NCBI GenBank assembly: GCA_964360085.1
Contig: CAYHVJ010000002.1
Coordinates: forward strand, 1-35,416
Direction: 5' to 3'
Length of the DNA: 35,416 nt
DNA from: an uncultured Candidatus Saccharibacteria bacterium
GTDB lineage: Bacteria > Patescibacteriota > Minisyncoccia > Phycocordibacterales > SBAW01
The notes beneath the pieces were generated by a model, which worked only from the letters and a program-made list of their open reading frames with translations, was not told the DNA's origin and did not search any database. Positions within the stretch are counted from its first letter, which is position 1. Each line of letters starts with the position of its first letter. The translations under genes were made by a program, and so were the position numbers. This document shows, piece by piece, positions 2,154 to 33,590 of the stretch.

Positions 2154-2533
2154 GTATTGGCATGAAAAGTGTGTATGCAGAAACCGGCATAGGGAACGGC
2201 TCATTTTTCTCGACCGAGATAGAGGAAGGGGACAGCGAGTAATGAGTCGGTGTAGCTAAATCCTCCCGCCCAGCAGTAATAACCATGAAATACAGCTCTT
2301 TTTAACAACTTTTCACGATTATGGCCAGCATTTTAGTGAAAACTTCGGCATCGCTGGCTTCGAACTCAGTAGTTAACTACGTAATTAACCCAATAATAAA
2401 AAAGCCCCCGGCAGGGACGAGCCCTACAAGGGTCTTTTTCGTAGTGATACCGATATGTTACCGCCTCTCAACTGAAGAGTCAATGAGTTGTGGACGAGGC
2501 CAAATCCCTTATTTTTAGAGGTACAATCTAGCC

Positions 2534-2728
2534 ATGGCCAGACCCAAAGCAACCTCCGGCAAAAAGCAGGTCCGCAAGCTCACCAAAGTGGGCGGCGGTG
2601 CGTCCTACAGCCTCGCGCTCCCGGTGGAAATAATAAGAAAATTTAAGTGGAAAGAGAAGCAAAAACTCACAGTCACTGTAGACCTCAAAAACAAAAAACT
2701 AATAATCCGCGACTGGAAGGGGAGGTAG
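2534..2728 (+). CDS. AbrB/MazE/SpoVT-family DNA-binding protein (antitoxin-like), no adjacent toxin
   Basis: 64 aa. KVGGGASYSLALPVEIIRKFKWKEKQKLTVTVD...LIIRD matches the swapped-hairpin SpoVT/AbrB pattern. Confidence 0.7.
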   Translation: MARPKATSGKKQVRKLTKVGGGASYSLALPVEIIRKFKWKEKQKLTVTVDLKNKKLIIRDWKGR

Positions 2729-2954: not shown

Positions 2955-3242
2955 ATGAATCTCTATCTAATTGCTTATAGACTTGCGCGTCCGGGCCAAA
3001 ATTACGAGGCTCTCTACGCCGACATACGGTCACTTTCAGGCACCTACTGGCACAACACCACCTCTTCTTGGTTGGTGGAAAGTAGCCTATCGGCGAAACA
3101 GGTCTATAGTAACCTCAGCCGACATCTTGATGGTAACGACGAGATTGTCGTCTTCAAATTGGGAGGCGAGTTTTACGGGCAACTTCAGCCAAGTGACTTG
3201 GAGTGGCTAAGTGCTCGGACAGGTTTGTGGGTCAGCGTGTAG
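2955..3242 (+). CDS. hypothetical 95-aa protein with alternating beta/alpha pattern (ferredoxin-like, Cas2-like look; unverified)
   Basis: MNLYLIAYRL..YEALYADIRSL..WHNTTSSWLVES..SAKQVYSNLSRHL..DEIVVFKL reads as a beta-alpha-beta-alpha-beta pattern. I placed the start at the internal ATG 2955 of ORF 2907-3242. A strong terminator follows the gene. Confidence 0.5.
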   Translation: MNLYLIAYRLARPGQNYEALYADIRSLSGTYWHNTTSSWLVESSLSAKQVYSNLSRHLDGNDEIVVFKLGGEFYGQLQPSDLEWLSARTGLWVSV

Positions 3243-3256
3243 GGGCTCTCCTTGCA

Positions 3257-3290
3257 ACACAAAACCCGCCCTCCAGGGCGGGTTTTGTGT
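3257..3290 (+). terminator. strong rho-independent terminator
   Basis: ACACAAAACCCGCCC-tcca-GGGCGGGTTTTGTGT is a 15-bp perfect stem. Confidence 0.75.
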
Positions 3291-3295
3291 TAATG

Positions 3296-3322
3296 GCTAA
3301 ATTTTTCATATTTGATAGGCTT
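3296..3322 (+). repeat. 27-nt upstream element, copy 1 (before the 4-TM gene)
   Basis: GCTAAATTTTTCATATTTGATAGGCTT matches 4012-4038 at 24/27. It contains TGaTAGGCT 7 nt before ATG 3329. Confidence 0.7.
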
Positions 3323-3328
3323 TTAATC

Positions 3329-4012
3329 ATGGAAAAGAGAAGTGCATCAAATTTTTCTGACACCGAACTCCTTCAGATTGGTAAAACAAACCAAGAGTTG
3401 TCACGACAGATTCGAAGTGTCTTCAAACAGGGAATAGAGGGTATGTATTACGACATGGGCCAGGTTCAAAGAATATTGGCAGAGTTTACTGCACGAGGGG
3501 CAACTTTGATGACAGTGGCCAGCCTGTTTGCGATTCTCCCGGTTACCATGGGATATGAAAAGGTCTACTTGGCTTATTTTTTGATGTGGACATTCCCTTT
3601 CCTTTTAGTTTCCATAATATTTTTTTATCTTTCCTCTAAGAGGGCAAATATTACAAGATCAGGGAGTCTCCTTATTCCAGAAGGGTTGCCGGAAGAGCTT
3701 GTACTACTAAGGGCCCACTTTGTGGGTCTTGAAGAAATCTGCCGACAACAATATTCTTTATATCAAGAATCGCTCATATATTATCGATATAGTTCGACCG
3801 CAGTCTATAGTTATGTTATTTCTTTTGTACTAAATTATTATTTCTTTGTCTTTTTTGGAGAGCCTCCCCTTTTCTTTGCGATGATGGTTTTCGTCTTTTG
3901 TTGGGGGTTCGGAGTATACCTCATATGGTTGAGAGAAAAAGGGTCTCAAAGTAAAGCCTTCGGATCTTCTTTTTTCGAACCCGATAAGGAAAACCAAACT
4001 CCGAGTAGGTAG
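3329..4012 (+). CDS. hypothetical 4-TM membrane protein with about 50-aa soluble N-terminus
   Basis: Four hydrophobic helices: ATLMTVASLFAILPVTMGY, VYLAYFLMWTFPFLLVSIIFFYL, AVYSYVISFVLNYYFFVFFG and PLFFAMMVFVFCWGFGVYLIWL. An alternative start is ATG 3293. The 3203 start crosses the terminator and was rejected. Confidence 0.6.
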   Translation: MEKRSASNFSDTELLQIGKTNQELSRQIRSVFKQGIEGMYYDMGQVQRILAEFTARGATLMTVASLFAILPVTMGYEKVYLAYFLMWTFPFLLVSIIFFYLSSKRANITRSGSLLIPEGLPEELVLLRAHFVGLEEICRQQYSLYQESLIYYRYSSTAVYSYVISFVLNYYFFVFFGEPPLFFAMMVFVFCWGFGVYLIWLREKGSQSKAFGSSFFEPDKENQTPSR

Positions 4013-4038
4013 CTAAATCCTTCATATTTGGTAGGCTT
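4012..4038 (+). repeat. 27-nt upstream element, copy 2 (before the 377-aa gene)
   Basis: GCTAAATCCTTCATATTTGGTAGGCTT contains TGgTAGGCT 10 nt before ATG 4048. Confidence 0.7.
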
Positions 4039-4047
4039 GAGTAACTT

Positions 4048-5181
4048 ATGGAAGTCTTGTTAAAAAGACTTGGTATTTCTGTCGAACATTTAAAGTGTCT
4101 CGATGAAGTATTTCGCGCTAACTCCCCTCTGTACAACCAGATGGAGATAAATATGACACGCGAGCTAGGTACCTATATGGATGAGATTGGCAGGGAACTG
4201 TATGCGGGGGGTAAACAGACCAGAGGAAATCCGACGCTAGCTCGTCAGATGATACTCGGCGATGTAGTTGAATATATTTTTACGGGTAGAGCGTACTATC
4301 ATGCCGCTCGCTCGGAGGATAATTTTAGAAATTTTTCTAAATTAGTACTCTATTGTGTAAATCAGCTCTTACTCTTAGACACCATTACAATAAATCCACA
4401 GCTCCGCCGCGCATATATAGAAAAACTTGAAGAAGTCATTCCTCTCGATGTGTTGTATGAAAAGGAAGGGGATAGAGATTTGGCAGAAGCACTTAAGACC
4501 TCTACTTTGCTTATCCGCCAAGCGGGCTGGGATCCATACGACACCTTTGTTGACTCTCTCCTTCCTAAAACCTTGGGTTGTCCCAAAGAGCTCGTAGTTT
4601 TTTTGGAACTTATTCGTCTCAAGAAAGGACTTATTATTCCGTTATTGCTCATTCAACGACTTTTTGGCGGCGGGAAGAAAATGGCACCACCCGATTTTCT
4701 TATCTTAAAGAGGAACAGAGAGAGTTTCGGTATCGAAGTTGGCTACGAAAAAGAAAAGCAGGGGAGGGAGTTTTCCATACAGACCTCGATTCCAACATTT
4801 GCAGTTGATTTAAAAAATCACATGCATAACCGTTGTCCTAAATGTGGAGCGAATATTTTATATTGTGATTCAGTTATCAGAAAATACGCGGACGGGACAC
4901 TGTGGGGTGAGTTGGATACGGAAGGGAGATACCGTTGCGGGCAGGATTGCCAAAATTTTGATGGAACTATATGTAGATTTTCTAATTACTACGGCAAGTA
5001 TCGCGGCCGGTGCTTCTATGGCACCCAAGAAGCGGGGGACGATCGAAAAGATATGCATTATCATGCTACTTGCGTGTTAGACGACAGTTATATTTTTCGT
5101 AATAAAGAGAGGCCAATCCGAGAACATATAGGAGATTTTTTCTGTCAAATTCCTGAAATAGAGGACATCTCTAGCCTATAG
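4048..5181 (+). CDS. hypothetical 377-aa protein: helical N-domain, PD...E nuclease-like segment, Cys-rich C-terminus
   Basis: APPDFLILKRNRESFGIEVGYEK (P215-D216...E230) resembles a PD-(D/E)xK core, but the ExK is not canonical. There are 9 Cys in the last 115 aa, including CPKC-x6-C and C-x3-C-x7-C. No family recognised. Confidence 0.6.
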   Translation: MEVLLKRLGISVEHLKCLDEVFRANSPLYNQMEINMTRELGTYMDEIGRELYAGGKQTRGNPTLARQMILGDVVEYIFTGRAYYHAARSEDNFRNFSKLVLYCVNQLLLLDTITINPQLRRAYIEKLEEVIPLDVLYEKEGDRDLAEALKTSTLLIRQAGWDPYDTFVDSLLPKTLGCPKELVVFLELIRLKKGLIIPLLLIQRLFGGGKKMAPPDFLILKRNRESFGIEVGYEKEKQGREFSIQTSIPTFAVDLKNHMHNRCPKCGANILYCDSVIRKYADGTLWGELDTEGRYRCGQDCQNFDGTICRFSNYYGKYRGRCFYGTQEAGDDRKDMHYHATCVLDDSYIFRNKERPIREHIGDFFCQIPEIEDISSL

Positions 5182-5191
5182 TTTTCTACGT

Positions 5192-5219
5192 TATCCACAC
5201 AACTTGTGTATGTTGTGTA
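5192..5219 (+). promoter_or_regulatory. upstream element shared with lexA (TTGTGTA tandem)
   Basis: TATCCACACAACTTGTGTATGTTGTGTA aligns with 12644-12670 TATCCCCAAACTTGTGTATATTGTGTA at about 24 matches in 28 columns with one gap. The core AACTTGTGTATRTTGTGTA matches 18/19. Confidence 0.55.
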
Positions 5220-5251
5220 TTTACATCAAATATTAGGTGTAAAATACACAT

Positions 5252-6844
5252 ATGGGGGATAATTACATCATGTCGCTCGTTTCGATTCCAGAGGCTTCTA
5301 AATGGGCATCTAGTCACCTCAAGAGAGAGGTTTCGCCCACTAATATTTCTTACCTCGTCCAATACGGGAAGGTTAAAAAACATGGCGAAAATGGTTCCAC
5401 AATGGTACATCTCGACGACCTTAAGAAATACTACGCTTCGTATACAGGCTCGCGAGAGTTGAGTTGGAAAAGTAAGCTAGGAAATGATTTAAATTGGGCA
5501 CTATCCTTTGATAATTTACGCGAAAAAGATACGACCAAGCATGTACATCGGTTGCATCCTTATAAGGGAAAGTACATCCCTCAGCTTGTAGAGTATTTTT
5601 TGGGGGAAACCATTGATGATTTTAAGAAGGGAACCTACTTTAAGACCGGGGATATTGTTCTAGATCCATTTCTGGGCTCGGGTACTACGGTAATTCAGTC
5701 ACTCGAGATGGGTATTCACAGTGTTGGTATAGATGTCTCTGAGTTCAATTGCATGATTGCAAGCGTAAAAGCTTCTCACTACGACTCCGACTATTTGCGC
5801 GCGGCAGTTCAAAAAATGCTTAACTCTCTAGAGTCTTTTGAGGATGATAACAAAATTGAGGAATTTGAGATTGAGCTTCTGTCTGAGCTTTCCGTGTTTA
5901 ATAATAAGCATTTTCCGGGTCATGATTTTAAATACAAATTAAACCAAGGCAACATAAAAGAAAGCATATTGGGCACAGAAAAAGAGAAAGTATTTCTTCC
6001 TACATACAATAAACTGGTAAAAAAATACTCAATTGTTTTAAATCAGAAGGACTCCGATTCCTTTTTGGATAAATGGTACTTATTTAATGTTCGTCGAGAG
6101 ATAGACCATGTGTTCGAGGCTATTAAAAAAGAGAAGGATGTCAAAACACGTAAAATTCTAGGTCTCATTTTGAGCAGGACAATACGTTCATGCCGAGCCA
6201 CCACTCATAGTGACTTAGCAACTCTTAAAGAGCCCCAAGTTACAACTTACTACTGTTTTAAGCATAAAAAGATTTGTAAGCCCCTCTTCTCTATCAAAAC
6301 AATGCTTAATCGCTATGCCGTCGATACTGCCGGCCGCATTGATGAGTTCAAAAAACTACGCAAACCCGCGCACTTCTCTATTTTAAAAGGGGATTCTCGC
6401 AAGGTGGATATTTTTGCTGGTACTGAAAAAACAAACAAAGAGTTTTCAAAAATCTTGAAAAAACAAAAAATTGCAGGAATATTCTGCTCCCCGCCGTATG
6501 TAGGTCAAATAGACTACCATGAGCAACATGCCTACGCGTACGACCTCCTAGGTTTTAAACGACATGATGACTTGGAAATCGGCCCTTTGTATAAAGGTCA
6601 GGGTCTCGAAGCACGGCAATCATATGTGCAAGGGATAGCAGATGTTCTAAACAACTGCAAGAAGTTTTTCAAAGAGGATTATGATGTATTTCTGGTTGCG
6701 AATGATAAATACAATCTCTATCCGCAAATTGCTGAAAAATCAGGCATGAAAATTGTAAACCAATTCAAGCGCCCAGTACTAAACCGCACCGAAAGGGATC
6801 GTACCCCATATTCAGAAATTATCTTTCACTTCAAATCCTCGTAG
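5252..6844 (+). CDS. site-specific DNA amino-methyltransferase (SPPY motif IV; probably N4-cytosine, possibly N6-adenine)
   Basis: Motif X/I is HPYKGKYIPQLV...GDIVLDPFLGSGTT (aa 138-146, nt 5663-5689). Motif IV is FCSPPY (aa 413-416, nt 6488-6499). About 265 aa lie between them, which is the alpha-class order with a putative TRD. An alternative start is ATG 5270. Confidence 0.85.
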   Translation: MGDNYIMSLVSIPEASKWASSHLKREVSPTNISYLVQYGKVKKHGENGSTMVHLDDLKKYYASYTGSRELSWKSKLGNDLNWALSFDNLREKDTTKHVHRLHPYKGKYIPQLVEYFLGETIDDFKKGTYFKTGDIVLDPFLGSGTTVIQSLEMGIHSVGIDVSEFNCMIASVKASHYDSDYLRAAVQKMLNSLESFEDDNKIEEFEIELLSELSVFNNKHFPGHDFKYKLNQGNIKESILGTEKEKVFLPTYNKLVKKYSIVLNQKDSDSFLDKWYLFNVRREIDHVFEAIKKEKDVKTRKILGLILSRTIRSCRATTHSDLATLKEPQVTTYYCFKHKKICKPLFSIKTMLNRYAVDTAGRIDEFKKLRKPAHFSILKGDSRKVDIFAGTEKTNKEFSKILKKQKIAGIFCSPPYVGQIDYHEQHAYAYDLLGFKRHDDLEIGPLYKGQGLEARQSYVQGIADVLNNCKKFFKEDYDVFLVANDKYNLYPQIAEKSGMKIVNQFKRPVLNRTERDRTPYSEIIFHFKSS

Positions 6845-6890
6845 AGTCCTTCCGTAGACGACAGCATGGTTAGGTGTTAGCGTATAGCTC

Positions 6891-7682
6891 ATGGCGCTTT
6901 CGTCAGCTACCAAGAAGAAAATCCACGATTTCTTGAAGGAAAAAGTGGAGAAGAAAGTAAGTACATACACTTTGAGTGGAATGGACTCCGCGAAGCCTTT
7001 TCAGTACTCCTTGTTTACAAAATAAGGATACTTAGTTAAGGGGTTTATACACGGGTGTGAGACAGGCATGGGTAATTGGCATGAAACTATTGCAAAAATG
7101 GTATCTAGTGGGAATTTTGTGCACGCGAAAAAGTTACAGGGCAAATCTAGACTTGCAGGCGTTGTTACGGTGAAGGCTCAAAAAACATTTGAAGACATCC
7201 TTAGCGATCTAGACAGTGTTAGAAGGCGTCCAGACCATAAGAAGGAATCTCTTGAAATATATAAAGCAAGTACAAAAGGAAAAACAGTTGCCAGGTACCA
7301 GACTGTAGATTTGTACCTACAACGAAAAAATGGAGAAGAGATTTACTTGGAGATAAAAGGCCCGAAGCCAAATAAAAATGAGATGAGGGCAGCGAAAAGA
7401 GATTTGCTAGAAATTTATGCAATGAGAGCAGCGGCGGGTAAACGAGTAAAAATATTTCTCGGTATGTACTATAACCCGTACTTTCCCAGAAAGTATGATA
7501 GATGGACGTGCTTAAAGTTTTTCGATAATGGGCAGGATTTTTTGGTAGGTAAAGATTTTTGGGATTTCCTAGGTGGCAAAGGTGCCTATGAAGATTTGAT
7601 AACAATTTATGAGAGTGTGGGTAAAGAAATACGTCCTGCTTTAGAAAAGAAATTGAAAAGCATGAAGGGGAGTAAAAGATAA
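6891..7682 (+). pseudogene. PD-ExK type II restriction-endonuclease-like gene interrupted by one in-frame TAA (7023-7025)
   Basis: ORF 6891-7025 (44 aa, ...KPFQYSLFTK*) and ORF 7068-7682 are in the same frame, since 7068-6891=177. The catalytic pattern is VD81LYL-x-EIYLE95IK97GPKPN (nt 7308-7358). The ELK/EIK-x-PKPN look recalls the TdeIII family from memory only, unverified. Confidence 0.6.
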
Positions 7683-7698
7683 ACTCCTGAATTAGCTC
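7681..7698 (+). repeat. 18-bp direct repeat, copy 1 (AAACTCCTGAATTAGCTC)
   Basis: Matches 8280-8297 at 17/18. It starts inside the stop codon of the nuclease-like gene. Confidence 0.65.
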
Positions 7699-7729
7699 AG
7701 TAGTTAATTACGGATTAATATAGAGGCTC

Positions 7730-8302
7730 ATGAACCTACTGCACAAAACTACTGCGCCGGGGGAGAATAACCGCAAGGCGGATAACTCGGATAGGAAGGA
7801 GCTTTTTCCTAAAGACAAGCGGCCCCACCCCGCCGCTTATCACAAAGAGCAGTGGGCTTTTATTTCGGATATTTCTTTGCGGGAGAATATCGCTTATCAA
7901 ATGCAGTACCTCGAGTTTTCGGTCAACTTGTACAACGAGTACCAAATATACCTGACTATCGAGTCGCTTTTGTGCAAGGACATCCTCGGTGCGGTAGGGG
8001 GGATAGTCGAGGCCGCTCTGTTTGATATGATCTATACCGCCAAGACGGCCGCCGGCATGCCGATGGGCGTGCGCAACGACTTTGTCGCCCTGCTTGGCGA
8101 GGCGTACCACAGCTTTAAGTTTATCGACAAGGACATGTGGCATTACTTCCACGATCTGCGCAAAGTGCGCAACTATGTGCACCTCAAGGCGGCGGACTTC
8201 CAAGAGCACACCGCTTACACGGTAGAGGAGGCCAATGAGGCTCTCACTATGCTCGAAAAATTTCGCCGGAGCTTTGCCAAAACTCCTGAATTAACTCCAT
8301 AA
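7730..8302 (+). CDS. HEPN-like protein (candidate RNase / abortive-infection component)
   Basis: All-helical 190-aa protein with HDLRKVRNYVHL (R144-x6-H151, RN at 147-148; nt 8159-8182). This resembles the LRxxRNxxxH signature of HEPN/DUF4145-type domains. Confidence 0.5.
   Translation: MNLLHKTTAPGENNRKADNSDRKELFPKDKRPHPAAYHKEQWAFISDISLRENIAYQMQYLEFSVNLYNEYQIYLTIESLLCKDILGAVGGIVEAALFDMIYTAKTAAGMPMGVRNDFVALLGEAYHSFKFIDKDMWHYFHDLRKVRNYVHLKAADFQEHTAYTVEEANEALTMLEKFRRSFAKTPELTP
8280..8297 (+). repeat. 18-bp direct repeat, copy 2 (AAACTCCTGAATTAACTC)
   Basis: Lies within the last codons (KTPELTP*) of the HEPN-like gene. Confidence 0.65.
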
Positions 8303-8304
8303 AT

Positions 8305-8346
8305 AAAAAAAGCCCCCTTCCGGTATTTTGAGGGAGGGGGCTTTTT
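8305..8346. terminator. bidirectional rho-independent terminator at the right edge of the island
   Basis: An A-run, then GCCCCCTTCC-ggtattttga-GGGAGGGGGC, then TTTTT. It sits between convergent genes. Confidence 0.75.
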
Positions 8347-12056: not shown

Positions 12057-12641
12057 ATGGGAAAAATAATTTTAGGCTTAGCGGCAGTTGCCGCAGTGCT
12101 GGGCGCGGGTTATTGGTTTTTATTTATGAATGAACAAATTATGCAAGAAAGTACAAAAGAAAGTACAAAAGCGACGCTGCACACTACCAAGGGCGACGTT
12201 GTTATCGAGTTGCTCGGCGCAGACGCGCCCGACACGGTGGCGAACTTTACAAAGCTCGCAGGGAGCGGCTTTTATGACGGCACCAAGTTCCACCGCGTCA
12301 TCAAGGGCTTTATGATCCAAGGCGGCGACCCTTTGAGCAAAGACGACGCCAAGGCGGCACAGTGGGGGACAGGCGGCCCGGGCTACCAGTTTAAAGACGA
12401 GATACGCCCCGGCAACCGCAACGACATCGGCACCATTTCGATGGCCAACGCCGGCCCGAACACCAACGGCTCGCAGTTCTTTATCAACACGGCGGCCAAT
12501 AACTTTCTTGACACCAAGCACACCGTCTTCGGCAGGGTAGTGGCAGGCCTAGACGTGGTCAAGGCGATAGAAACAACCCCAACAGGGTCAAACGACCGCC
12601 CTGTAGAGCCCATGGTCATCACCTCTATTACGCTCGAGTAA
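12057..12641 (+). CDS. peptidyl-prolyl cis-trans isomerase, cyclophilin type, membrane-anchored
   Basis: FHRVIKGFMIQGGDP, MANAGPNTNGSQFFI and HTVFGRV motifs, plus an N-terminal TM helix. Confidence 0.9.
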   Translation: MGKIILGLAAVAAVLGAGYWFLFMNEQIMQESTKESTKATLHTTKGDVVIELLGADAPDTVANFTKLAGSGFYDGTKFHRVIKGFMIQGGDPLSKDDAKAAQWGTGGPGYQFKDEIRPGNRNDIGTISMANAGPNTNGSQFFINTAANNFLDTKHTVFGRVVAGLDVVKAIETTPTGSNDRPVEPMVITSITLE

Positions 12642-18987: not shown

Positions 18988-19011
18988 AAGACTACGATAT
19001 ATCGTAGTCTT
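18988..19011. promoter_or_regulatory. 24-bp perfect palindrome AAGACTACGATATATCGTAGTCTT abutting ATG 19012
   Basis: Identical to 19430-19453. It contains -10-like TATATC/TAGTCT. Confidence 0.6.
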
Positions 19012-19428
19012 ATGCCGCATGTATCAAGACACACGCCGGTGCGAAAAGTATCGGATAAGATTTTTGAGTTGCTTGTAGAGTGCGTTACAACCAAAGGCTC
19101 GACAAACGAGCGCCAAACATTTTTTGTCGACCTGCTCACACCCACCGAGCGTATTATGTTTTCAAAAAGATTCGCGATTATTTATATGTTAGCCAAAGGG
19201 TATTCATTTGACACCATACAAGACACTTTGCGAGTGAGCCCATCTACTATTGCGCGGATTTGGGTAGCGATACAAAAAGGGAAGTATACCGACATTGTCG
19301 GACGCGTGCAAAAACACAGCAAAAACAAGGAAGACCTTAATTTGTTTCAATGGTTGAGCGACATTGTTCCTCCAATGAATATGTCAAAGAAACAATACGC
19401 CGCACGCATGCGCCGCCTCGGATTATAA
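19012..19428 (+). CDS. TrpR-like (YerC/YecD family) DNA-binding protein
   Basis: LLTPTERIMFSKRFAIIYMLAKGYSFDTIQDTLRVSPSTIARI matches the YerC/YecD Trp-repressor-like pattern. Confidence 0.65.
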   Translation: MPHVSRHTPVRKVSDKIFELLVECVTTKGSTNERQTFFVDLLTPTERIMFSKRFAIIYMLAKGYSFDTIQDTLRVSPSTIARIWVAIQKGKYTDIVGRVQKHSKNKEDLNLFQWLSDIVPPMNMSKKQYAARMRRLGL

Positions 19429-19429
19429 A

Positions 19430-19453
19430 AAGACTACGATATATCGTAGTCTT
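19430..19453. repeat. second copy of the 24-bp palindrome, 2 nt after the stop codon (terminator-like)
   Basis: Identical to 18988-19011 and flanked by an A-run and a T-run. Confidence 0.6.
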
Positions 19454-19517
19454 TTGAGTACGGTGTATTAGATAAAATAAAAAAGGCGGACTTTCGTCCG
19501 CCAGTTATCAACGTCTA

Positions 19518-19703
19518 TCATTTTGCAAAACAACGAGCCCATATTATGAGGCTTCTATTTCTATAAGACTCATCTTTCTTTATTTGCTCAGCTGCTGTTT
19601 TGCATGCTTGCTCTGAGTAGAACTCTGCCTGTGAAGTCATTTTTGGAGTGACAGATCCAAAGCCATTCTGTTGCAAGAGAATATAGATGAGAACCCACTT
19701 CAT
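19518..19703 (-). CDS. small hypothetical protein (61 aa), low GC
   Basis: Internal start MKWVL... with a GAGGAGG Shine-Dalgarno 8 nt upstream. The GGCGGAC-tttc-GTCCGCC hairpin at 19485-19502 plus a T-run on the minus strand terminates it. Confidence 0.45.
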   Translation of the reverse strand: MKWVLIYILLQQNGFGSVTPKMTSQAEFYSEQACKTAAEQIKKDESYRNRSLIIWARCFAK

Positions 19704-19766
19704 AGCCAAGCCCTCCTCGGTGCCTTGTTGCAACTGGAGAAATCCTAACACCAATATATTTATATG

Positions 19767-21617
19767 TCAAACCCCAAGAACGACCGGGATTACTATCGGC
19801 CTTTTGTTGGTCTTTTCGAAGAGGAAGCGGGAGATGGCGTCGGTGACGTCGTTTTTTATCATGTCGAAGTTGATCGGATTTTGTTTCTTTGCTTCGTCCT
19901 CGATTGTTTTTTTGACTATGATGCGCGCCTGCTGGAGGAGCTCCTGGCTCTCGCGCAGATACACGAAGCCGCGGCTGATTATGTCCGGCGACTTGCGCAG
20001 GCGGCCGGTCTTGGGGTTTACCGTCGCAATGATGACGAACATGCCTTCCTGCGAGAGCACGGTGCGGTCGCGGATGACCACCTCCTGCAGGTCGCCGATG
20101 GAGAACCCGTCCACCAGCCGGAGGCTGTTGGGCGCCGACTCTTTGAGACGCACTATTTTTGTGCCCTCGTCCTGAATTTCGATGACCGTGCCGTTGTCGG
20201 GAATAACTATCTCATCCTCCGCGCGGCCGCAGGCCTTGGCGATGTCGGCGTGCACACGGAGCATGTAGTGGTAGCCGTGCATCGGCATAAAGTAGCGCGG
20301 GTTTATCTTTTGGTGGATCCAGAATGTTTCGTCGCGGTTGGCGTGGCCGGAGGCGTGCACATCCATGGTGTCGCGGTGGATGATGCGCGCGCCCTGCCGG
20401 CTGAGGTTGTCTTTGAGTTTCTGCACGCTCCGCTCGTTGCCCGGCACCACCGAAGAGGAGAGCACGACGGTGTCGCCCTTTTTGATTTTGACGTATTTAT
20501 GCGTCTTCATCGCGACGCGCATGAGCGCCGCAAACTCGTCGCCCTGCGCGCCGGTTGCCAGTATGACCACCTTGCTGTCGGGCAAGTGCTCGAGCTGTGC
20601 CGCGTCGATAAAGGTCTTGTCAGAAACCTTGAGCATCCCGAGCTGTTTTACTATCTCGATGTTTACCTTCATGCTGCGGCCCTCTATCAGGATCTTTCGG
20701 CCGACGCGCTCCGCCTGCTCTATCATGCGCATCAGGCGCTCGAGCTGGGAGGAGAAGGTGCCTATAATGAGGCGCCCGGGAGTTTTGGCGATAATTTCGT
20801 CCAGATTCTTTTTTACCACGCGCTCCGGCAGTGAGAAGCCGGGCCTCTCCACGTTGGTCGAGTCGGCGCCGAGGAAGAGCACTTTGCGCTCCGCAAACCA
20901 GGAAAATTCTTTTTCTTCCGTCTCGGTCGGTATGCCGTCGACATGGTCGAGGCGCAGGTCGCCGGTAAAGACGATGTCGCCGTACTGCGTCTCTATGACT
21001 ATGCCCATGGAGTCGGGGATGGTGTGGTAGACGGAAAAGAAGCGTACGCGCAAGTTGCCCACCTTGACAGTGTCTTCTTTTTCCACCTCGTGGATATCCA
21101 AGGGCTTAAGGTTGGGGAACTCCTCCTGCCGCTTTTTGATCATGACTGCGGTGAGTCCGCGCGTGTAGATGGGCGGATAGCCGATGCGGTCGATGATATA
21201 GGGGATGCCGCCGATGTGGTCGAGGTGTCCGTGCGTGATAAATAAGCCGCGGATTTTTTCCCGGCGCTCCTCGAGGTACTTGGTGTTGGGGATAATGTAG
21301 TCGATGCCCGGCGTGTCGTCTTCGCGGAACTGGAACCCGGCGTCGACGATAACGATGTCGTCGCCTACCTCCACCATGGTCATGTTTTTGCCGATTTCCT
21401 CCACGCCGCCCAGAGGGATGATGCGGATGTTTCCGGCTGCAAGCGGCGGTATAGGCCGCTCGTCGCCGTTGAGCATCGGCGTGTGCTCCGGTATCTCGCG
21501 CACCGGGTGCGCCTGATGCGGGCGCGGGCCCCCTTGGCGCAGGCGTCCTCTCCCGCGCGAGCCTTGTTTGACTCCGCGTTTTTCAAAACGTCTAAATGGT
21601 TTTTTTTGTTCGGGCAT
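19767..21617 (-). CDS. rnj: ribonuclease J (metallo-beta-lactamase / beta-CASP) with about 60-aa Arg/Gly-rich N-terminal extension
   Basis: IIPLGGVEEIGKNM, HGHLDHIGG and ASGHA motifs. 616 aa. Confidence 0.9.
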   Translation of the reverse strand: MPEQKKPFRRFEKRGVKQGSRGRGRLRQGGPRPHQAHPVREIPEHTPMLNGDERPIPPLAAGNIRIIPLGGVEEIGKNMTMVEVGDDIVIVDAGFQFREDDTPGIDYIIPNTKYLEERREKIRGLFITHGHLDHIGGIPYIIDRIGYPPIYTRGLTAVMIKKRQEEFPNLKPLDIHEVEKEDTVKVGNLRVRFFSVYHTIPDSMGIVIETQYGDIVFTGDLRLDHVDGIPTETEEKEFSWFAERKVLFLGADSTNVERPGFSLPERVVKKNLDEIIAKTPGRLIIGTFSSQLERLMRMIEQAERVGRKILIEGRSMKVNIEIVKQLGMLKVSDKTFIDAAQLEHLPDSKVVILATGAQGDEFAALMRVAMKTHKYVKIKKGDTVVLSSSVVPGNERSVQKLKDNLSRQGARIIHRDTMDVHASGHANRDETFWIHQKINPRYFMPMHGYHYMLRVHADIAKACGRAEDEIVIPDNGTVIEIQDEGTKIVRLKESAPNSLRLVDGFSIGDLQEVVIRDRTVLSQEGMFVIIATVNPKTGRLRKSPDIISRGFVYLRESQELLQQARIIVKKTIEDEAKKQNPINFDMIKNDVTDAISRFLFEKTNKRPIVIPVVLGV

Positions 21618-32342: not shown

Positions 32343-32582
32343 TTAATCCTTGCGGGGACAAACAACATAGCCCCCTTTCCCTGTTAAGTTCATTTCTTCC
32401 GCGATCCAGACCACTTCGCGACGGCCTCCGTCCGGTCTCGGCTTCGCGCATTCCGCATCGATGCGGTCGTAGCGAGCCTTGACTGGATCGACGGGGTGGA
32501 AGTAATTTGCCGCGGCGATGGTCGTGATGATGGCGACAGAAATGACAGCGGCGATGCCGCCGTATTCGGTAGCAGTAGCCAT
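32343..32582 (-). CDS. small membrane-anchored hypothetical protein (79 aa)
   Basis: AGGAG Shine-Dalgarno 6 nt upstream. TM helix GGIAAVISVAIITTIAAA. Confidence 0.5.
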   Translation of the reverse strand: MATATEYGGIAAVISVAIITTIAAANYFHPVDPVKARYDRIDAECAKPRPDGGRREVVWIAEEMNLTGKGGYVVCPRKD

Positions 32583-32753
32583 GGTAGTCTCCTGACTGTT
32601 TGGGTGAATTCAAAACAACTCTCCTCTGTAGTATACACCCGTACAACAGATTTGTCAAGTAGTCAACCGAGAAAGCCTTATTTCTAGCCTTAAAGTGACG
32701 AGGTGTGGATAGTTTATCTTGTTTGCACAAATGGCTCAGTATATAATGGAACT

Positions 32754-33590
32754 ATGGGCAGGCAAAAAATTCAAATTTCAGAAGCTAGTTTGCGAGAGTT
32801 GTATCTGATAAAAAAATGGACACCACGCAAAATTGGCCTGCAATTTAACTGCGACGGAATAACGATAAGAAACCGTTTAAAAGAATTAGGAATACCCTTC
32901 AAAACCAAAAGCAGTGCTCAGACTAAATACTCCAGATATGACTTCGACGGTACAGAGACTGAGAGGGCTTATATGCTCGGATTCCGATACGGGGACTTGA
33001 ATGTGTATAAACCGAAAGGAAAATCTGAAACCATCGTCGTCCGCTGTCATACCACCCACACTGTTCAAGAAGATTTGTTTAAAAAACTATTTGCCAAATA
33101 TGGGACTATTACCGTTTCTCGTAATGACCGTAGCATGCATATGAATTGCTACCTAAACCATTCATTCAGTTTTTTGTTGCCAAAATACAATAATCAAGAG
33201 CGCGAGTGGTTGCTACAAGACAGTAAACGTATGTGGGCATTTATCGCCGGCTACATAGACGCAGAAGGTACCTTTGGCATTTACGAAAATCGAGGAAGAT
33301 TCAAGGTAGATGCGTATGACATTCTTATTCTTAAAGAGATGCATGAATTCCTTGTTCATAATGGAATTAGGAGTATCATGCGGATTATCGTGAGGAAAGG
33401 ACAACCCGGCAACGGAAGCTATTGGAATAACGATGTGTGGCGCATAAACGTGAACGAGTCGAACTCGCTCGCGATATTTATAACCAACCTACTGCCGTTT
33501 CTCATGCATAAAAAACGAGTTAAAGATGCACGGGCAGTACTCAAAAATGTATTGAAAAGACAACTAAATGGAAAGATTAAAACACATTAG
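32754..33590 (+). CDS. free-standing double-motif LAGLIDADG homing endonuclease with N-terminal HTH
   Basis: Motif 1 is YMLGFRYGDLNV and motif 2 is FIAGYIDAEGTF. Low GC. TATAAT at 32742-32747 lies 6 nt before the ATG. The 3' end overlaps the lepA start by 23 nt. Confidence 0.8.
   Translation: MGRQKIQISEASLRELYLIKKWTPRKIGLQFNCDGITIRNRLKELGIPFKTKSSAQTKYSRYDFDGTETERAYMLGFRYGDLNVYKPKGKSETIVVRCHTTHTVQEDLFKKLFAKYGTITVSRNDRSMHMNCYLNHSFSFLLPKYNNQEREWLLQDSKRMWAFIAGYIDAEGTFGIYENRGRFKVDAYDILILKEMHEFLVHNGIRSIMRIIVRKGQPGNGSYWNNDVWRINVNESNSLAIFITNLLPFLMHKKRVKDARAVLKNVLKRQLNGKIKTH

Follow-up and report, generated by a model that had tools for sequence, protein, structure and literature searches.

Three consecutive genes of the forward strand, designated A (nt 2955–3242, 95 aa), B (nt 3329–4012, 227 aa) and C (nt 4048–5181, 377 aa), lie in a low-GC island of contig CAYHVJ010000002.1 (GenBank assembly GCA_964360085.1) from an uncultured Candidatus Saccharibacteria bacterium. 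The contig was analysed over positions 1 to 35,416 of its forward strand, and this whole stretch of 35,416 nucleotides is called the window below. The window is chromosomal, and its GroEL places the host among the Patescibacteria (Parcubacteria); the nearest metagenome-assembled genomes share 88–94% GroEL identity and carry mixed labels, Saccharibacteria, Adlerbacteria and Kaiserbacteria among them. An earlier note on this DNA had placed the three open reading frames (ORFs) correctly, just 5′ of a DNA methyltransferase (MT) gene and a restriction endonuclease (RE) gene of the HinfI/TdeIII family (PF09520), and had proposed them as orphans that form a new defence module. We find that C belongs to the type II restriction-modification (R-M) operon and not to an A-B-C module. 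The C family is conserved and unnamed, and in the loci examined it is confined to type II R-M operons. The region as a whole is probably a mosaic, in which C is an accessory metal-dependent nuclease of the R-M operon and A and B are unrelated cargo.

Gene C in type II restriction-modification operons

C is not an orphan. At least 312 homologues share 56–86% identity with it over the full length, and all are annotated as hypothetical. The hosts include Roizmanbacteria, Omnitrophica, Zixibacteria and Verrucomicrobia, and the family ranges over Patescibacteria, Bacteroidota, Acidobacteriota, Planctomycetota, Spirochaetota, Pseudomonadota, Actinomycetota, Chlamydiota and one archaeon. Flaviramulus multivorans M-M16 (locus L017; NZ_JAKKDV010000001.1, about 621.5–625.0 kb) is a cultured carrier of C, in an intact MT-C-RE operon; Capnocytophaga species have the operon without it.

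For the genomic context, 25 genome loci were retrieved with C-family motifs and then searched with all proteins of the window. In every one of them a homologue of the window MT (52–81% identity) lies directly upstream of C, and a PF09520 RE directly downstream, wherever the contig reaches. Two loci that seemed to be devoid of the RE carry one from a different PF09520 clade. The usual order is MT-C-RE, with the genes overlapping or nearly abutting (for instance, MT end 8004 and C start 8001; C end 9134 and RE start 9137), which argues for one operon with translational coupling. In the lineage of the window the order is C-MT-RE, and a 27-nt element stands upstream of C. Altogether about 36 C loci were examined. 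C is co-located and co-oriented with MT and RE genes in the 25 genome loci, in the close relatives L028–L031 and L125, and in the distant loci L037–L041. The MT homologues beside C share 52–95% identity with the window MT across loci.

The association extends to remote members of the family. A profile search of 1.8 billion representative proteins returned 113 relatives of C, and the full-length ones at 28–37% identity again sit with a PF09520 RE, and with a methyltransferase wherever the contig reaches. A Hadesarchaeon relative adjoins a PF09520 enzyme and a methyltransferase, two metagenomic lineages combine a distant C with PF09520 and methyltransferase genes, and in a third the C gene overlaps a PF09520 gene at the contig end. 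Gene orders and orientations vary among the distant loci, and their methyltransferases are 257, 467 and 529 aa long. A still remoter protein, which shares the C-terminal half of C only, adjoins a methyltransferase and an RE of the MjaV family. By tblastn, C has no match in 72,556 plasmids or 50,697 phage genomes. A generic passenger of defence islands would not be expected to keep so strictly to small type II enzymes as C does.

The dependence is not mutual. An RE-anchored scan of 185,579 species genomes gave at least 555 loci, the best 80 of which were examined for MT and C. The 530-aa MT is present in 76 of the 80 and C in only 5, and the standard operon has the MT gene followed directly by the RE gene. 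L042 illustrates the difference. Compared with the sister operons L044 and L059, which share about 80% DNA identity with it and are without C, L042 carries C in about 1.15 kb of DNA inserted cleanly after the MT stop and before the RE start; its RE is 85–91% identical to those of L043–L061, which are also without C. C is therefore optional in this operon class. As a fallback, the earlier note had suggested that C is a nuclease-like restriction partner of the methyltransferase. This stands in so far as C is always found in an operon with MT and RE genes, but C is not the cognate enzyme. The candidate role of a missing cognate RE was rejected, since the PF09520 enzyme is present wherever the contig extends and 75 of the 80 related operons do without C. 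No C gene was seen apart from such an operon, while most sister operons do without one; C is thus an R-M-dependent accessory and not a core subunit.

Insertions recur at the MT-RE junction, and in other operons this slot contains known defence genes. An AbiU/AIPR gene occupies it in at least 10 loci (PF10592, E 1e-36 to 2e-44; PADLOC AbiU, E 6e-104), and both C and AbiU are found there in L007 and L014. A second PF09520 enzyme lies in the slot of L079, L105 and L117; that of L070 contains a ParB-like/PD-Lambda-5-like gene and an Mrr-type nuclease gene, and that of L113 an A-like gene (30% identity, E 1e-12) together with a gene for a 165-aa protein with a transmembrane (TM) segment. Loci with slot insertions are L007, L014, L070, L079, L080, L082, L088, L094, L097, L099, L105, L107, L108, L113 and L117.

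Such a distribution raises the alternative that C is a selfish gene, similar to a homing endonuclease, which targets the intergenic junction of HinfI/TdeIII-type operons without benefit to defence. Its patchy presence among very close operons (L042 against L043–L061), the clean insertion between a stop codon and the next start, the nuclease-like and Zn-ribbon-like features of the protein, the restriction to one kind of target locus and the different insertion position in distant lineages would all be understood in this way. We nevertheless regard it as unlikely. The identities of C among the operons that carry it (53–96%) and the covariation of C with the MT (Spearman rho 0.56, see below) better fit long co-inheritance than repeated recent invasion, and all 377 residues of C are strongly conserved, those of the N-domain included. 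Unrelated defence genes also enter the slot, so no special homing mechanism is needed, and the phage and plasmid collections hold no copy of C.

The two partner genes differ in how they have evolved with C. In the window, the MT gene (nt 5252–6844, forward strand) encodes a type II N6/N4 DNA methyltransferase of 530 aa with motif I before the SPPY motif, matching Pfam N6_N4_Mtase (PF01555, E 8.6e-15) and PADLOC MTase_II (PDLC03249, E 2.8e-220). The RE gene (nt 6891–7682, forward strand) was assigned by Pfam and tblastn. Its ORF at nt 7068–7682 (204 aa) matches RE_TdeIII (PF09520) with E 1.6e-43 over model positions 58–242 only, and intact PF09520 enzymes of 257–270 aa align by tblastn from an ATG at nt 6891 in the same frame. 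An in-frame TAA at nt 7023–7025 (codon 45) splits the gene into parts of 44 and 204 aa, and an independent metagenome contig (L027, 99.9% identical) shares this stop. Of the methyltransferase/nuclease pair pointed out earlier, both families are thus clear, but the restriction gene is interrupted. Judged from the sequence, the window system may be decaying into a methyltransferase and C. The window RE also belongs to a different PF09520 clade from the REs of L028 and L125 (25–33% identity; 25–27% to that of L028), whereas the MT is 95% identical to that of L028. The exchanged segment spans nt 6838–7675 of the window, against 6407–7242 in L028 and 4096–4919 in L125, and by this comparison the restriction gene of the window appears as a swapped cassette relative to those loci.

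The same behavior was seen among 19 C-bearing operons. Pairwise identities average 63% for C, never falling under 53%, against 59% for MT and 50% for RE, where the lowest value is 24%. Spearman rho between the distances is 0.56 for C-MT, 0.16 for C-RE and 0.04 for MT-RE. C tracks the MT while the RE tracks neither, which indicates that the RE module is swapped freely and that C and the MT travel together.

These figures bear on the possibility that C is a guard-type abortive-infection effector, comparable to PrrC. The restriction complex would keep C latent, and loss of RE or MT function to a phage anti-restriction protein would then release its nuclease activity. C occurs only with R-M genes and is nevertheless optional, as expected of a guard; AbiU, an abortive-infection gene, uses the same slot and joins C in L007 and L014; and PrrC, which resides inside a type I R-M locus, is an established precedent. 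However, C tolerates REs from at least four PF09520 clades that are 24–38% identical to each other, and this tolerance together with the C-RE rho of 0.16 argues against a tight latent complex of C and RE. Covariation with the MT in place of the RE is a mild argument in the same direction. Moreover, C is without an NTPase or sensor domain, and in the window the RE is interrupted while C stays intact with no sign of counter-selection. A guard function is accordingly an improbable account of C.

Predicted structure and putative function of C

The AlphaFold (AF2) model of C, built on the family alignment (pLDDT 80.8, pTM 0.84), consists of an all-helical N-domain (residues ~1–190), a small β core and a Cys/His-rich C-terminal domain. 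The core strands run through residues 195–198, 217–221, 225–231 and 250–253; D216 precedes the second of them, and E230 belongs to the third. Residues E181, D216, E230, K235 and Q238xxxF242 form a core that resembles PD-(D/E)xK enzymes, and the C-terminal domain holds C263xxC266x6C273, C301, C309, H339 and C342. The helical N-domain (residues 1–190), the PPDFLIL...GIEVGYEK segment and the nine Cys (residues 263–366) that had been read from the sequence before are all confirmed. Conservation centers on the same parts of the protein. Invariant down to 28% identity are Y52, R66, M68, D72, R81, R120, D169, E181, Q203, E230, F242, R262, C263, C266 and H339, and P215, D216, C273, C301, C309 and C342 are conserved in at least 90% of the family. 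C has no conserved N-terminal Cys. All local structural matches of low rmsd are PD-(D/E)xK nucleases, namely AvaII, BamHI, Bax1, a tRNA-splicing endonuclease and several VRR-NUC proteins.

From these features we infer that C is a metal-dependent DNA nuclease. The functional unit would comprise the N6/N4 methyltransferase, the HinfI/TdeIII-family RE and, as an optional third gene, C. Contact with DNA would be made through the Cys/His-rich C-terminal domain, as the carrier of Zn or an Fe-S cluster, and cleavage would take place at the PD-(D/E)xK-like center (E181, D216 and E230, with K235 or K174). With host DNA shielded by the methyltransferase of the operon, invading DNA that is unmethylated would face C as a second nuclease, which could either restrict on its own or process the ends that the RE leaves.

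Several points weigh against this assignment. For every member of the family the nuclease role is deduced from sequence and predicted structure. At position +2 of E230 stands a conserved Gly (E-V-G) and not the canonical Lys, and K235 is not universal, so catalysis by C is only putative. No match was found in Pfam, NCBIfam, PADLOC or PHROGs for C, for its C-terminal half alone or for its distant relatives; comparison with PDB sequences, by single sequences and by the family profile, yielded Zn-ribbon noise only; and Foldseek searches with the model gave nothing significant, with best E-values of 1.2 (PDB) and 0.66 (BFVD). The covariation of C with the MT may only mirror physical linkage. The absence of C from 75 of the 80 sister operons means that its role is dispensable for restriction, and a selfish mobile nuclease gene would account just as well for its patchy distribution by clean insertion. 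Finally, with its partner RE gene interrupted by a stop, the R-M system of the window may be decaying.

Alternatively, C might be a DNA-binding or assembly factor without nuclease activity, for example a regulator of the Zn-ribbon kind or an adaptor that connects MT with RE, and tune the expression, the establishment or the target choice of the R-M system. The missing ExK lysine and the want of a significant nuclease match agree with such a factor, as does the covariation with the MT, and the weak sequence similarities of C are solely to Zn-ribbon proteins such as RNA polymerase subunit P. On the other hand, L038, and probably L040, has small helix-turn-helix (HTH) controller genes in addition to C, and the invariant or conserved acidic residues E181, D216 and E230 are set in a β core typical of PD-(D/E)xK enzymes. 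This explanation is quite improbable in our judgment. The narrower candidate of a classical controller protein was rejected, because the small HTH controllers exist beside C and C is five times larger. Two further candidates were also rejected, each at an hhalign probability of 0.4%: that C is a diverged PF09520 paralogue serving as heterodimer partner, and that C and the AbiU of the same slot have a docking domain in common.

A broader proposal that includes the accessory nuclease can be made only tentatively. The C family may represent a so far unrecognised three-component form of type II R-M, in which C either cuts as a second nuclease under the control of methylation or serves as a guard that is triggered by a block of restriction. 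C would then be a metal-cluster nuclease of largely new fold that works only beside small PD-(D/E)xK enzymes of the HinfI/TdeIII and, more distantly, MjaV types, and this too is a tentative suggestion. The MT-RE junction would conceivably be a dedicated docking slot for defence cargo, with C, AbiU, Mrr-like, PD-Lambda-5-like and Cas2-like genes as the cargo.

Genes A and B and the assembly of the island

A and B make up a replaceable cargo segment, and the slot that they fill, from an AbrB-like gene to the 5′ element of C, is hypervariable. The AbrB/MazE-like gene (nt 2534–2728, forward strand) encodes a small DNA-binding protein of 64 aa and forms the conserved flank of the slot; the match of its product to Pfam MazE_antitoxin (E 6.7e-4) is under the curated cut-off. 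It is 90.6% identical in L028–L031, and nucleotide homology to it extends to L125 as well. The window, L028–L031 and L125 share a neighborhood of the AbrB-like gene, C and MT followed downstream by TspO, HTH and LapA genes, and C and MT of L028–L031 are 79% and 95% identical to those of the window. Between the AbrB-like gene and C, L028–L031 encode three soluble proteins of 118, 140 and 253 aa. In L125, whose C is 86% identical to that of the window, an NYN-domain nuclease takes this place. In both L028 and L125, nucleotide homology to the window restarts at nt 4009, where the 27-nt repeat starts.

B is the only true orphan among the three genes, and it is in this one case that the earlier description holds. 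No relative other than B itself was found among 5.8 billion proteins, no profile of Pfam, NCBIfam, PADLOC or PHROGs matches it, and it is absent from L028 and L125. Its hydropathy, with about 55 soluble residues followed by hydrophobic segments at residues 57–75, 79–103 and 158–202, amounts to about four TM helices and agrees with the soluble start and four helices described before. B is a lineage-specific orphan membrane ORF, cargo bracketed by the two 27-nt copies.

A, by comparison, has relatives. It matches phrog_1090 over its full length (E 2.9e-20), and homologues occur in temperate phages of Enterococcus, Staphylococcus, Klebsiella, Clostridium and Mannheimia and in metagenome-assembled genomes, so that it cannot be counted as an orphan. 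The AF2 model (pLDDT 80) has the fold β1-α1-β2-β3-α2-β4-α3, in accord with the alternating β/α pattern anticipated in the earlier note. The best PDB matches by Foldseek are Cas2 proteins (7f84, 4es1, 4qr0) and the Cas2-like BPSL1038, with probabilities of 0.99–1.0, modest E-values of 5e-3 to 2e-2 and TM scores of 0.5–0.65. At the end of strand 1, where Cas2 has its catalytic Asp, A has the Arg of an invariant Y8-R9-L10, and neither cas1 nor a CRISPR context was seen in the five A-family contexts examined. The neighborhoods of its homologues are diverse. One homologue follows an AAA/S8-peptidase pair, one precedes a KAP NTPase, one lies in the lysogeny region of phage phiFL2B, and another, near an MvaI/BcnI system, has an ImmA/HTH pair on one side and a cytosine methyltransferase on the other; neither B nor C occurs in these neighborhoods. 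A is a small, independently mobile, stand-alone protein of Cas2-like fold found in phages and defence islands, and it is unlinked to C.

A hairpin with a 16-bp stem follows A at nt 3256–3291 on the forward strand (dG -31.9 kcal/mol, z -4.8), and none of 200 shuffled sequences folds as well. It is a probable terminator. The hairpin that had been proposed to close A is real in this sense, but it has no clean T-tract and the terminator scan made no call.

In three unrelated contexts (the window, L113 and L035) the gene after the A-family gene encodes a TM protein. These are B (nt 3329–4012), the 165-aa protein of L113 (nt 4283–4780) and the KAP NTPase of L035 (nt 5281–7893), and the three are not homologous to each other.

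The reading of A-B-C, or of B-C, as a new abortive-infection or defence module, with B as the effector and C as the sensor or nuclease, can now be weighed. In its favor are the 27-nt element upstream of both B and C, the defence-type island, and the succession of A-like genes and TM proteins in the window, L113 and L035. Against it, B is without a homologue anywhere searched, neither A nor B occurs in any of the ~36 C loci outside the window's own lineage, and the closest relatives have other genes in place of A and B. A strong hairpin closes A, and the neighbors of A homologues differ each time. The searches of the 25 genome loci likewise gave no match for A, B, the AbrB-like gene or the ORF at nt 7730. 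The earlier note had itself made conserved co-occurrence of B and C a test of the module, and none was found, with B without homologues and its slot refilled in L028 and L125; on that test the module fails, and we consider it highly improbable. What did prove correct is that none of the three genes falls in a named defence family (PADLOC-DB 2.0, zero families for each at E up to 1) and that the general setting is a defence island, as the variable slots elsewhere hold AbiU, NYN, PD-Lambda-5-like and Mrr-like genes.

The 27-nt element offers an explanation for the position of B. Copy 1 (nt 3296–3322) is directly upstream of B and copy 2 (nt 4012–4038) is upstream of C, where it forms the left boundary of the conserved C-MT block; both are on the forward strand. 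As had been noticed before, the same element precedes both genes: the copies agree at 24 of 27 bases, and none of 100 shuffles matches this. Upstream of C the element is kept with 2 mismatches in L028–L031 and L125, and it was not found in loci outside the window's own lineage with up to 6 mismatches allowed. A 13-nt partial copy of the 5′ half of the repeat, GTAGCTAAATCCT, is located at nt 2252–2264 (forward strand) at the left island edge. The same 13-mer recurs at nt 4009–4021, so that the pair brackets the AbrB-like gene and the cargo, as does the equivalent pair of L028 at 1583 and 3583. The restart of homology at the repeat and the 13-nt copy at the left edge point to a junction duplication, and the copy before B is best read as a duplication of the 5′ region of C that arose at the insertion of the B cassette. 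The 3′ half of the repeat contains TGnTAGGCT, an extended -10-like motif, and ends 7–10 nt before each ATG, and B and C are without a Shine-Dalgarno sequence. The element may therefore be a promoter from which B and C are expressed as near-leaderless mRNAs.

Other direct repeats are nested in the island. CTCAGTAGTTAAYTACG at nt 2365–2381 and 7696–7712 brackets the stretch from the AbrB-like gene to the RE gene, and AAACTCCTGAATTA at nt 7681–7707 and 8280–8306 brackets the ORF at nt 7730. The direct repeats of the island have counterparts in L028 and L125. This arrangement suggests a stepwise build-up of the island, with short repeats as the sites at which one cassette after another was added.

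The island itself extends over about 2.3–8.3 kb of the window, where the GC content is 0.38–0.45 against 0.55–0.60 in the flanks, and its order on the forward strand is the AbrB/MazE-like gene, A, B, C, the methyltransferase gene, the PF09520 ORF and a 190-aa ORF. Between C and MT, directly before the MT start, nested inverted repeats (nt 5205–5250, arms of 9–12 nt, 83–100% complementary) form a possible operator. The 190-aa ORF (nt 7730–8302, forward strand) is a variable cassette without a family match, bracketed by the direct repeats just described; its GC of about 0.5 is above that of the island core, and it is present in L125, while L028 keeps only the first 20 codons. The HEPN label that it had been given is unsupported, with zero matches in Pfam, NCBIfam, PADLOC and PHROGs. 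Its translation contains a candidate R-x6-H stretch (RKVRNYVH).

Outside the island, the GC content of the window dips twice more, at ~19000–20000 (0.44) and ~32500–33500 (0.42). An ORF in the second dip (nt 32703–33590, 295 aa) has no NCBIfam match. Among the Patescibacteria loci, genes resembling LexA/S24 peptidases, or their fusions to N6/N4 methyltransferases, recur beside methyltransferase genes; they are found just upstream of the MT in L004, L044, L045 and L048, and at 12401–13930 in L028, 1881–3743 in L033 and 4106–4729 in L035.

Relation to known systems and significance

HinfI/TdeIII-type R-M is the known system closest at hand, as both of its defining genes are in the window and C stands in operons of this kind at every locus examined. 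The described systems and 75 of the 80 sister operons have two genes, whereas C is a conserved third gene, and the window differs further by its stop-interrupted RE. The methyltransferase of Treponema denticola is TDE0909 and its TdeIII enzyme TDE0911 (PMC8265222; PMC12878829). The numbering leaves one gene between them, which is the position of C in the usual operon. This gene, TDE0910, may be a homologue of C; Treponema was not among the loci returned by the C and RE scans.

PrrC is an RNase with an NTPase domain, the anticodon nuclease in the EcoprrI type I R-M locus. C resembles it as an optional gene of nuclease type, putatively so, that is nested in an R-M operon and found in that context only. 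C is however without the NTPase domain or any sequence similarity to PrrC, and it belongs to type II systems. AbiU/AIPR (PF10592, PADLOC PDLC02357) shares with C the MT-RE slot, in at least 10 sister operons, and accompanies it in L007 and L014. Homology between the two is not detectable (hhalign probability 0.4%), and AbiU occurs also outside R-M operons, where C has never been seen.

Other likenesses concern the proteins themselves. Compared by eye with the motifs of RecB/Cas4-type PD-(D/E)xK nucleases, C appears to have the same order, the acidic helix residue E181, D216, E230, Q238xxxF242 and CxxCx6C, with E230 fourteen residues after D216. It differs in that no profile or fold match is significant, the ExK lysine is Gly, the conserved Cys are all C-terminal to the core, and there is an additional helical N-domain of 190 residues. 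BslI and BbvCI are heterodimeric type II enzymes, with two different nuclease-type proteins beside one methylation function. C is not a paralogue of PF09520 (hhalign probability 0.4%), and since most sister operons do not have it, C cannot be an obligatory subunit of this sort. Similarly, A resembles Cas2 in its predicted ferredoxin-like fold (β1-α1-β2-β3-α2-β4) and top Foldseek matches, and one phage homologue is annotated as 'CRISPR-associated endoribonuclease'. The modest E-values (best 5e-3), the Arg in place of Asp and the absence of a cas1 or CRISPR context in those examined set A apart from Cas2.

Our analysis reassigns a supposed three-gene defence module: C now falls in a conserved, unnamed family whose members travel obligately with one class of R-M operon. 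The interest that remains lies in this phylogenetically broad, R-M-dependent accessory family and in the recurrent slot for defence cargo in its operons. The MT-RE junction, which captures AbiU and other defence genes, can serve as a cheap genomic bait for more of them. The family is testable in cultured hosts, with Flaviramulus multivorans carrying C and Capnocytophaga species the operon without it. If C is a nuclease gated by the methylation of its operon, some type II systems regarded as two-gene would actually be three-component, and this would affect the prediction of restriction barriers, and the engineering around them, in bacteria that are hard to transform.

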